Counted from the stretch's first letter, positions 53,241 through 53,830 are shown. The stretch is DNA of 54,642 bases from Moorena sp. SIO3A2 (GCF_010672265.1 NZ_JAAHHC010000004.1:70161-124802); one strand, 5' to 3'. Translations and numbers: made by a program. Notes: generated by a model not told the origin, from the letters alone.

Positions 53241-53830
53241 AAAACTTTACCGCCAAATTGGCTTGACAAGTGAGACAAATTAAATTAATAACGGTAGGTT
53301 AAAAATAACAACAACAAAACCATTGTTGTTAGCTACCTACCTAACTTAATCAAGGATCGAGCTAAAGTTTCCGCCAAATTGGCGTGACAAGTGAGACAAA
53401 TTCAACTAAGAGCGGTAGGATGAAAATAACAACAACAAAAACCAAAGTTGTTGTTAGCTACCTACCTAACTTAATCAAGGGTCGAACTAAAGTTACCGCC
53501 CAATTTGCTTGACAAGTGAGACAAATTAAATTAAGAGCGGTAGGATGAAAATAACAACAACAAAAACCAAAGTTGTTGTTAGCTACCTACCTAACTTAAT
53601 CAAGGTTCGAGCTAAAGTTTCCGCCAAATTGGCGTGACAAGTGAGACAAATTCAAGTAAGAGCGGTAGGATTAAAGTAACAACAACAAAGTTGTTTTTAG
53701 CTACCTAACTAATTTAATTAAAGTTTCCGCCAAATTGGCTTGACAAGTGAGACAAATTGAATAAGAAGCGGTAGAATAAAACTAACAACAACCAAGTTGT
53801 TCACTAACATCAAACTTACAAAAGAGCAGA
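53241..53830 (+). promoter_or_regulatory. five tandem ~100-125-bp promoter/5'-UTR units without CDS: [CGCCAAATTGGC(G/T)TGACA AGTGAGACAAATT…] + [GGTAGG…AACAACAAC(A)n…GTTGTTGTT…CTACC hairpin]; the last unit drives the family-C peptide gene
   Basis: unit starts approx 53251, 53371, 53497, 53621, 53720; TTGACA then 17 bp then TAAT/TAAG -10-like. Confidence 0.5.

Follow-up and report, generated by a model that had tools for sequence, protein, structure and literature searches.

Gene-less repeats of a predicted operator-promoter unit precede double-glycine peptide genes in Moorena

Moorena is a marine, filamentous, non-heterocystous cyanobacterium, and the stretch of Moorena sp. SIO3A2 analysed here (54,642 nucleotides in all; hereafter the window) contains two paralogous peptide-export clusters, A and B. 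Ahead of the peptide genes of cluster B lies a run of similar repeats, each resembling a promoter and none followed directly by a gene, which raises the question of what such units are for: additional promoters for the peptide genes, relics without a function, genes for small RNAs, or a sink for whatever factor recognizes the palindrome that they carry.

Each cluster encodes a peptidase-containing ABC exporter (with cNMP-binding, C39, and ABC domains), an HlyD adaptor, a HetP-family protein, and a tandem set of small genes with double-glycine leaders (Table 1). Judged by its C39-ABC exporter, HlyD, and small GG-leader genes, the locus is a double-glycine peptide/peptidase-ABC exporter cluster, with cleavage of the leaders predicted. 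In this gene content, including the HetP-like gene and the tandem arrangement of the leader genes, it resembles known cyanobacterial clusters, namely group II of Wang 2011 (PMC3140520), EbfG1-4/PteB of Synechococcus elongatus (PMC4997328), and HetC-HetP of Nostoc (PMC10986499), for which, as far as the literature could be searched, we found neither a shared promoter palindrome nor gene-less promoter repeats described. The Moorena precursors stand apart from these clusters in that their families match no Pfam or NCBIfam model. Their leaders end in IIGAG or VQGG; the relatives of precursor gene 1 amount to 19 proteins, all from Moorena, and an exact-sequence look-up of the window's precursor protein returned no record.

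Table 1. Features of the two peptide-export clusters and of their predicted operator-promoter units (window coordinates)
Feature	Position	Strand	Details
Cluster A	32802-44201		
Cluster A gene-less units	39680..40010	+	two 166-bp units, GCCAAAGTGGC-G-TTCATA-17-TATAAT; palindromes at 39713 and 39879
Cluster A gene-proximal promoter	40055..40162	+	AGCCAAATTGGC-GAGACA-18-TATAGT; upstream of precursor gene at 40163
Similar site, cluster A	41638		upstream of gene at 41735
Cluster B	46332 to window end		
Cluster B peptidase-containing ABC exporter (cNMP-binding + C39 + ABC)	46332-49544	+	PF03412, PF00664, PF00005, PF00027
Cluster B HlyD adaptor	49715-51349	+	TIGR01843
Cluster B HetP-family gene, 135 aa	52014..52421	+	NF037966, E 5e-21
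Canonical intrinsic terminator closing the hetP-like gene region, upstream of the array	53178..53213	+	10-bp stem and T-run
Gene-less unit 1, 121 bp	53240..53360	+	palindrome 53251-53263; TTGACA 53263-53268; GAGACA 53272-53277; TAATAA 53286-53291; TAGGTT 53295-53300; AACAACAAC 53307-53315; GTTGTT 53325-53330; CTACCTACC 53333-53341
Gene-less unit 2, 125 bp	53361..53485	+	exact palindrome 53372-53384, then GTGACA, GAGACA, TAAGAG, TAGGAT
Gene-less unit 3, 125 bp	53486..53610	+	degenerate palindrome CGCCCAATTTGCT, 3 mismatches, 53497-53509
Gene-less unit 4, 106 bp	53611..53716	+	short-tail type AGCTACCTAACTAATTTAATT; exact palindrome 53622-53634
Unit 5, predicted working promoter and ~53-nt leader of precursor gene 1	53717..53836	+	palindrome 53728-53740; TTGACA 53740-53745; GAGACA 53749-53754; TAGAAT 53772-53777; predicted start near 53784
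Precursor gene 1, 97 aa	53837..54130	+	double-glycine leader MNISDLNHIEVVNEETNIIGAG
Inter-gene spacer	54131..54246	+	13-bp-stem hairpin without T-run (~54144-54182), then TTAGCTACCTACCTAAGCCACCTACCAAACTTAAT
Unit 6, promoter and leader of precursor gene 2	54247..54355	+	palindrome CGCCAACTTGGCG 54247-54259, then GTGACA, GAAACA, TAGGCT
Precursor gene 2	54356..54642	+	runs off the window end

The first precursor gene differs by strain, encoding 97, 99, or 106 amino acids (at 53837-54130 in the window, L004:10001-10300, and L006:10001-10321, respectively). These first precursors share 43-58% identity between strains in which the promoter array and the exporter genes hardly differ; conservation extends to the leader and the regulatory regions, and the peptide cores appear to have been swapped or diversified. 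The 3′ end of precursor gene 1 (54125-54182) contains a 17-bp unit present in 2.7 copies that forms the hairpin without a T-run, a hairpin design also found 3′ of the precursor genes in loci L001-L003.

The HetP-family protein of cluster B, whose sequence is identical to one annotated Moorena protein, combines a modelled three-helix N-domain with an internal leader-like motif, IKDLDYAKPLDSRSQLVQGG. The motif takes the form IKDLxYxxxLx6-7GG, followed by a 23-34-aa tail, in the proteins encoded at 52014-52421 and 38608-39042, and an internal GG leader-like motif is present in 59 of 73 HetP-family homologues from outside Moorena. A GG motif in HetP-like proteins had already been noted (Wang 2011; PMC3140520). 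A third HetP-family gene, which encodes 104 aa and the N-domain only, lies directly upstream of the cluster A exporter gene (32053-32367). Between the hetP-like gene of cluster B and the array is a dense run of short tandem repeats (52447-53065) comprising the 7-mers TCAGCCA, GCTGAGT, and CAGAAGT, a 19-mer in 5.6 copies, and a 25-mer in 4.4 copies, over which spurious ORFs have been called in other assemblies. The terminator that separates this region from the array is conserved in sequence in L001-L003.

The tandem array itself, described in a first-pass annotation of this DNA, is borne out by TRF, which places it at 53247-53792 with a period of 125 bp, 4.6 copies, and 86% matches. Its palindrome, the 13-mer CGCCAAATTGGCG, is exact in units 2 and 4, has one mismatch in units 1, 5, and 6, and has three in unit 3, the only decayed operator among 35 aligned gene-less units. 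As that annotation had placed them, the palindrome overlaps or adjoins (T/G)TGACA, and TAATAA or TAAGAG follows 17 bp on. The precursor genes, which it had put after the sixth and seventh copies, in fact follow the fifth (palindrome at 53728, gene at 53837) and the sixth (54247 and 54356). It was right that the upstream copies have no coding capacity: the ORFs within units 1-4 span 24-42 aa, occur in some units only, and are not conserved, no ORF is common to the units, and the unit lengths are not multiples of three.

The origin of the units can be read from their anatomy. Each gene-less unit consists of a promoter, the first ~30-40 nt of a precursor leader, and the last part of the spacer between two genes. 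In units 1-4, agreement with the gene-proximal promoter and leader extends as far as GTTGTT, where the sequence changes to AGCTACCTACCTAACTTAAT, which is otherwise found 3′ of the hairpin of gene 1 (54204-54240; blastn E 0.003), where the spacer contains TTAGCTACCTACCTAAGCCACCTACCAAACTTAAT, the source-type sequence of the tails. Because a match to promoter and leader gives way to spacer tail, a unit appears to be a gene cassette with one internal deletion; it is collinear with the cassette on both sides of that deletion, its right part being the spacer tail AGCTACCTACCTAA..CTTAAT, as expected of a truncated gene copy. The earlier suggestion of decayed gene copies that retained their regulatory half is therefore the best anatomical fit, but the word decayed misleads: the palindrome and both sets of promoter hexamers are intact in 34 of 35 units from 12 loci, and it is the neighboring positions that vary.

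All 14 readable orthologous Moorena loci, which include contigs of 0.5-8 Mb from M. producens and M. bouillonii, contain gene-less units, numbering 2, 3, or 4 and more, and none has fewer than 2. An ordered layout recurs in these 14 loci, with a first unit, long-tail units, one short-tail unit, and a gene-proximal unit, and with the same junction; nearly all of them end their gene-less series with the short-tail type AGCTACCTAACTAATTTAATT. Junction and layout hold even where the downstream precursor shows only the low identity given above. There are four gene-less units in the window, three each in L004, L005, and L008, and two in L006, counts that may be too low where the assembly is one of several short-read metagenome bins, some with N-gaps in the array. 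Copy number differs between loci whose hlyD genes (window, L004, and L005 in one comparison, L006 and L008 in another) are only 0-0.2% apart at third codon positions. A metagenome scan for the cluster B unit gave no match.

The palindrome of cluster B is a local form of TGCCAAAWTGGCA, which extends well beyond the genus. We compared 80 hetP-family loci from species-representative genomes, 73 of them outside Moorena; these 73 yielded 79 instances of the core, where shuffled sequence predicts 2.7, and 45 of them carry it 120-700 bp downstream of the hetP-like gene. It is flanked without exception by a T and an A, so that the full motif reads TGCCAAA[A/T]TGGCA. The palindrome is followed by TAnnnT after 22-24 nt (typically 23), which puts the center of the palindrome near -41. 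Within the window, the core GCCARNNTGGC has 10 sites against 0.68 expected, all of them inside the two peptide-export clusters and 9 of the 10 intergenic. The motif thus exceeds background both here and near hetP genes at large, a breadth that the first-pass annotation had missed.

In a set of non-heterocystous genera (Kastovskya, Aliterella, and bins labelled Phormidiaceae and Chroococcidiopsidaceae), double-glycine peptide genes whose products begin MIISDLNHLE follow the palindrome at a distance of 80-110 nt. Its presence tracks neither the GG motif of the HetP-like protein nor upstream exporter genes, and a literature search for the literal palindrome strings found no cyanobacterial paper. 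From its recurrence and geometry we regard the palindrome as a genuine promoter element shared across filamentous cyanobacteria, beside hetP-like genes, that we have not found described, and the Moorena array belongs by core and genomic context to the TGCCAAAWTGGCA operator-promoter family as defined here. A 102-bp tandem array located after hetP in Symploca (L029), considered as a further promoter array, was rejected as TPR-repeat coding sequence.

Heterocystous genera show a different sequel to the element. There the operator-promoter after the hetP-like gene is followed by a ~450-nt region without a conserved ORF and with a canonical terminator at its end (L079:6833-7345, L030:6595-7140, and about 30 other Nostocales loci). 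Conservation within the region comes in islands, among them a hairpin whose loop is CCUCCC; the region has no Rfam match and has the appearance of a conserved non-coding RNA not previously described. Another conserved copy of the operator, TGCCAAnTTGGCAGATGACATT-N12-AAAAAATAGTATAAATAC, occurs 0.9-2 kb upstream of hetP-like genes in Nostocales (L055:4834, L077:4381, L063:4922, and similar), sometimes ahead of a 250-285-aa ORF, the leader of which ends in GG in L048.

Two overlapping promoters can be read in each cluster B unit. Candidate 1, that of the first-pass annotation, pairs (T/G)TGACA with TAATAA or TAAGAG at 17 bp; candidate 2, 9 bp downstream, pairs GAGACA with TAG[G/C][A/T/C]T, also at 17 bp. 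By the sigma-70 rule that we used (-35 and -10 hexamers 16-18 bp apart, with A2 and T6 in the -10), candidate 2 qualifies in 35 of 35 units, T1, A2, and T6 being invariant. The -10 element claimed for candidate 1 is indeed present at the claimed distance from its -35, but it lacks T6 in every one of the 35 gene-less units (G, A, or C instead) and is not called by a consensus promoter scan. In gene-proximal units the -10 of candidate 2 is TAGAAT, called by the scan at 53749-53777, or TATAAT (L009). The predicted start of candidate 2 is the first A of AACAACAAC, which would place a 6-9-bp hairpin at the very 5′ end of the RNA, and its -10/+1 stretch, TAGGAT-GAAAATAACAAC, resembles the family consensus TAaATT-AtAaATAACAAC. 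When the cluster B units were scanned with a PWM of the family -10/+1 region, the preferred position was TAGnnT in four of six and the -10 of candidate 1 in none, at low scores (-2 to +4 vs a native mean of 15.5). A point for candidate 1 is that it retains the 23-nt palindrome spacing of the family: in cluster B the palindrome is 23 nt from TAAGAG and 32 nt from TAGnnT, the corresponding distance in cluster A being 24 nt. On sequence alone, candidate 2 fits sigma-70 rules better and is most likely the promoter; candidate 1 may give a second start.

Cluster A contains a gene-less palindrome-promoter set of its own (Table 1), absent from the first-pass annotation. Its units carry a perfect TATAAT -10 and number four in Moorena sp. 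SIO3H5 (L013) vs two in the window; their sequence shows no relation to the units of cluster B or to that of any spacer. What clusters A and B have in common, as read from their sequences, is operator plus promoter, not an RNA product, and this is our main reason for favoring a promoter/operator role over an RNA product. Elsewhere in cluster A, the palindromes TGCCAATTTGGCA (36188-36200) and TGCCAATTTAGCA (36302-36314) lie in a ~114-bp direct repeat within the 800 bp that separate the exporter gene from the HlyD gene, an unusually long gap; the first of these palindromes is also found in Moorena loci L013 and L015.

The reading that we prefer, with confidence evenly balanced, is that the array feeds the peptide genes as a stack of promoters and operators under common regulation, variable in copy number. 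A unit would comprise the palindrome as operator for a dimeric regulator, a sigma-70-type promoter, the 5′-terminal AACAAC/GUUGUU hairpin of the precursor leader, and the spacer tail. One illegitimate deletion would have taken everything from the remainder of the leader through the coding sequence to the 3′ hairpin, and copy number would then have been altered by unequal crossing-over between the repeated promoters. Because no terminator separates the units, transcripts begun in any of them would be expected to read through the remaining units into the precursor genes, and the array would thereby add promoters and operator sites under the peptide genes' own regulator, setting expression level or switching threshold.

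Several considerations temper this proposal. Tandem promoters can interfere with one another, and more copies need not give more expression. If GAGACA-17-TAGnnT is the promoter, a 9-bp insertion (GTGACAAGT) puts the center of the palindrome near -50 rather than at the -41 of the family, and the action of the regulator may differ here. In read-through RNA, the -19 kcal/mol hairpin of each downstream unit might stop or process transcripts. Furthermore, because the Moorena lineages are close (0-9% third-position divergence), persistence across the genus and part of the conservation described below could reflect recent common descent and gene conversion from working promoters.

That last concern leads to the foremost alternative, an unlikely one in our view, in which the units are by-products of deletion and unequal crossing-over, intact since they are young and homogenized against working promoters, with nothing selected. 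It would fit the low divergence of the genus, the fast turnover indicated by copy-number shifts at nearly zero background divergence, the palindrome already lost in unit 3 of the window (53497), and the finding that none of the 73 hetP loci outside Moorena has a tandem repeat carrying the palindrome. In an alignment of 35 gene-less units, the minor-allele fraction is 0.006 in the palindrome core, the most conserved segment, 0.007 in AACAACAAC, and 0.011 in GAGACA, as against 0.09-0.20 in spacer, discriminator, loop, and tail, and 0.15-0.20 in the first three of these; the 3′ arm of the hairpin, at 0.11, is drifting, as a relic would. However, units within an array are ~10-15% apart at non-element positions and hardly differ at the palindrome, GAGACA, TAG..T, and AACAACAAC, a pattern that uniform homogenization would not produce. 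All 14 readable loci have kept at least two units despite rapid copy-number change, and cluster A has an independent, unrelated gene-less palindrome-promoter set at the same position. The footprint therefore points to selection, falling short of proof because the lineages are so close.

A second alternative, which we consider improbable, is that each unit yields its own short non-coding RNA that acts on the precursor or hetP-like mRNAs or serves as a decoy for a factor binding the AACAAC leader. The precedent is NsiR1 of Nostoc/Anabaena, a ~60-nt sRNA encoded in 12 tandem copies upstream of hetF, each with its own promoter (Ionescu 2010; PMC9045159), which targets the hetP-like alr3234 mRNA (PMC9045159) much as the Moorena array adjoins a hetP-like gene. 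Both arrays belong to filamentous cyanobacteria and consist of ~100-bp direct repeats with their own promoters (predicted in Moorena, at a period of 106-125 bp) and a regulatory motif at the -35 region, and in both the peripheral copies diverge. In the same direction point the absence of a gene from the units of both clusters, the ~450-nt ORF-less region with a terminator that follows the operator-promoter at the same position in heterocystous genera, and the 3′ hairpins of the precursor genes, which also lack a T-run and might represent a type that ends transcripts in Moorena.

The likeness does not extend to the units themselves. NsiR1 units produce a discrete RNA and carry the DIF1 motif TCCGGA; the Moorena units have another palindrome, no DIF1 motif, and no terminator per repeat, there being no terminator-like site in 53241-53836 and only one in 52400-54642, upstream of the array. 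Rfam searches of the window at the gathering threshold and of 53100-54400 in E-value mode returned only tRNA and chance hairpin matches, the NsiR1 model scoring 16 bits, where its gathering score is 39, and aligning to the upstream terminator, not to a unit. Unlike NsiR1, moreover, the Moorena units are apparently truncated copies of the promoter and leader of the neighboring gene, pointing into that gene.

Nor does RNA folding favor such a product. The stem-loop GGTAGG...CCTACC, which the first-pass annotation had described as conserved, is found in all four gene-less units, where GGTAGG...AACAACAAC-loop-GTTGTTGTT...CCTACC folds at -11 to -19 kcal/mol, with z-scores of -5.4 to -5.9 in three units and -2.0 in the fourth (unit 1 reaches -19 kcal/mol, z -5.4, provided that GGTAGG is transcribed), but gene-proximal units lack the CCTACC arm and keep only the 6-bp AACAAC/GTTGTT hairpin, at the predicted 5′ end in unit 5. 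Transcription from either predicted promoter would start at or after GGTAGG, and so the outer stem of this two-tier hairpin should be absent from a unit's own transcript and occur only in read-through RNA; RNA starting at AACAAC folds weakly (z -1.4 to -2.3), and the unit RNAs of cluster A fold no better than shuffles (z 0 to +1.5). The stems provide no informative covariation, their arms being (AAC)n/(GTT)n or invariant, and with no relevant Rfam match either, the units do not qualify by sequence as a structured cis-regulatory RNA. A search for trans targets among 13 start regions in the window found only trivial self-complementarity with the precursor leader. Small RNA genes, one of the options originally offered, thus find little support in the array.

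The remaining suggestion, that the units titrate a palindrome-binding regulator and so sharpen or delay the switch-on of the peptide genes irrespective of their own transcription, would suit the extreme conservation of the palindrome core, the confinement of all core sites in the window to the two clusters, and a variable copy number that would permit tuning, but we think it very unlikely as a sole explanation, since the promoter hexamers and the +1 region, neither of which a pure sink needs, are as conserved as the palindrome, and it overlaps with the promoter-stack reading rather than excluding it.

How the promoter-stack reading relates to known systems can be stated briefly. Class II activator-dependent cyanobacterial promoters of the NtcA type have GTA-N8-TAC centered at -41.5, a TAnnnT -10, and a weak -35. 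The TGCCAAAWTGGCA family likewise places its palindrome 22-24 nt before TAnnnT, with the center near -41 and a poor -35 region, but the site is different from that of NtcA and shorter, its half-sites being 7-8 bp apart center to center. Multiple promoters reading into one gene are familiar, for example, from rrn P1-P2, and the array resembles these in that its promoters all face the same way, are not separated by terminators, and would read into one gene. It differs in being built of repeats that are almost identical, with 2 to 4 or more gene-less promoters depending on the strain, each with a copy of the operator and leader hairpin. The array combines known kinds of element (tandem promoters, promoter-only gene remnants, and sibling-RNA-like arrays) and is not categorically new.

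Genomic context makes the HetP-family proteins candidates for the regulator, given the operator that follows the hetP-like gene in 45 of the 73 loci. HetP is reported to bind DNA non-specifically (PMC13342950), the N-domain of the HetP-like proteins, modelled as three helices, gives weak matches to winged-helix/HTH proteins, and for the HetC-HetP system an N-terminal fragment acting on transcription has been proposed (PMC10986499). A far-reaching extension, which we offer as speculation with little expectation that all of it holds, is that the HetP-family DNA-binding domain recognizes TGCCAAAWTGGCA as its specific operator, that HetP-like proteins with a GG motif are cleaved by the neighboring exporter, and that export would thereby feed back on transcription of its substrates, the gene-less units and the ~450-nt transcript being operator or ncRNA modules of a circuit ancestral to the hetC-hetP commitment module of heterocyst development.

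If the promoter-stack reading is correct, promoter-only copies of a gene cassette, stacked two to four deep and varying between near-identical strains, would constitute a simple evolutionary dial that tunes the strength or sharpness with which a secreted-peptide locus is switched on. The palindrome, for its part, would provide a concrete DNA target for the question of what HetP-family proteins and HetC-type exporters act on: located near -41 beside hetP-like genes in heterocystous and non-heterocystous genera alike, it is followed either by double-glycine peptide genes or by a conserved transcript that contains no gene, as predicted from these genomes.
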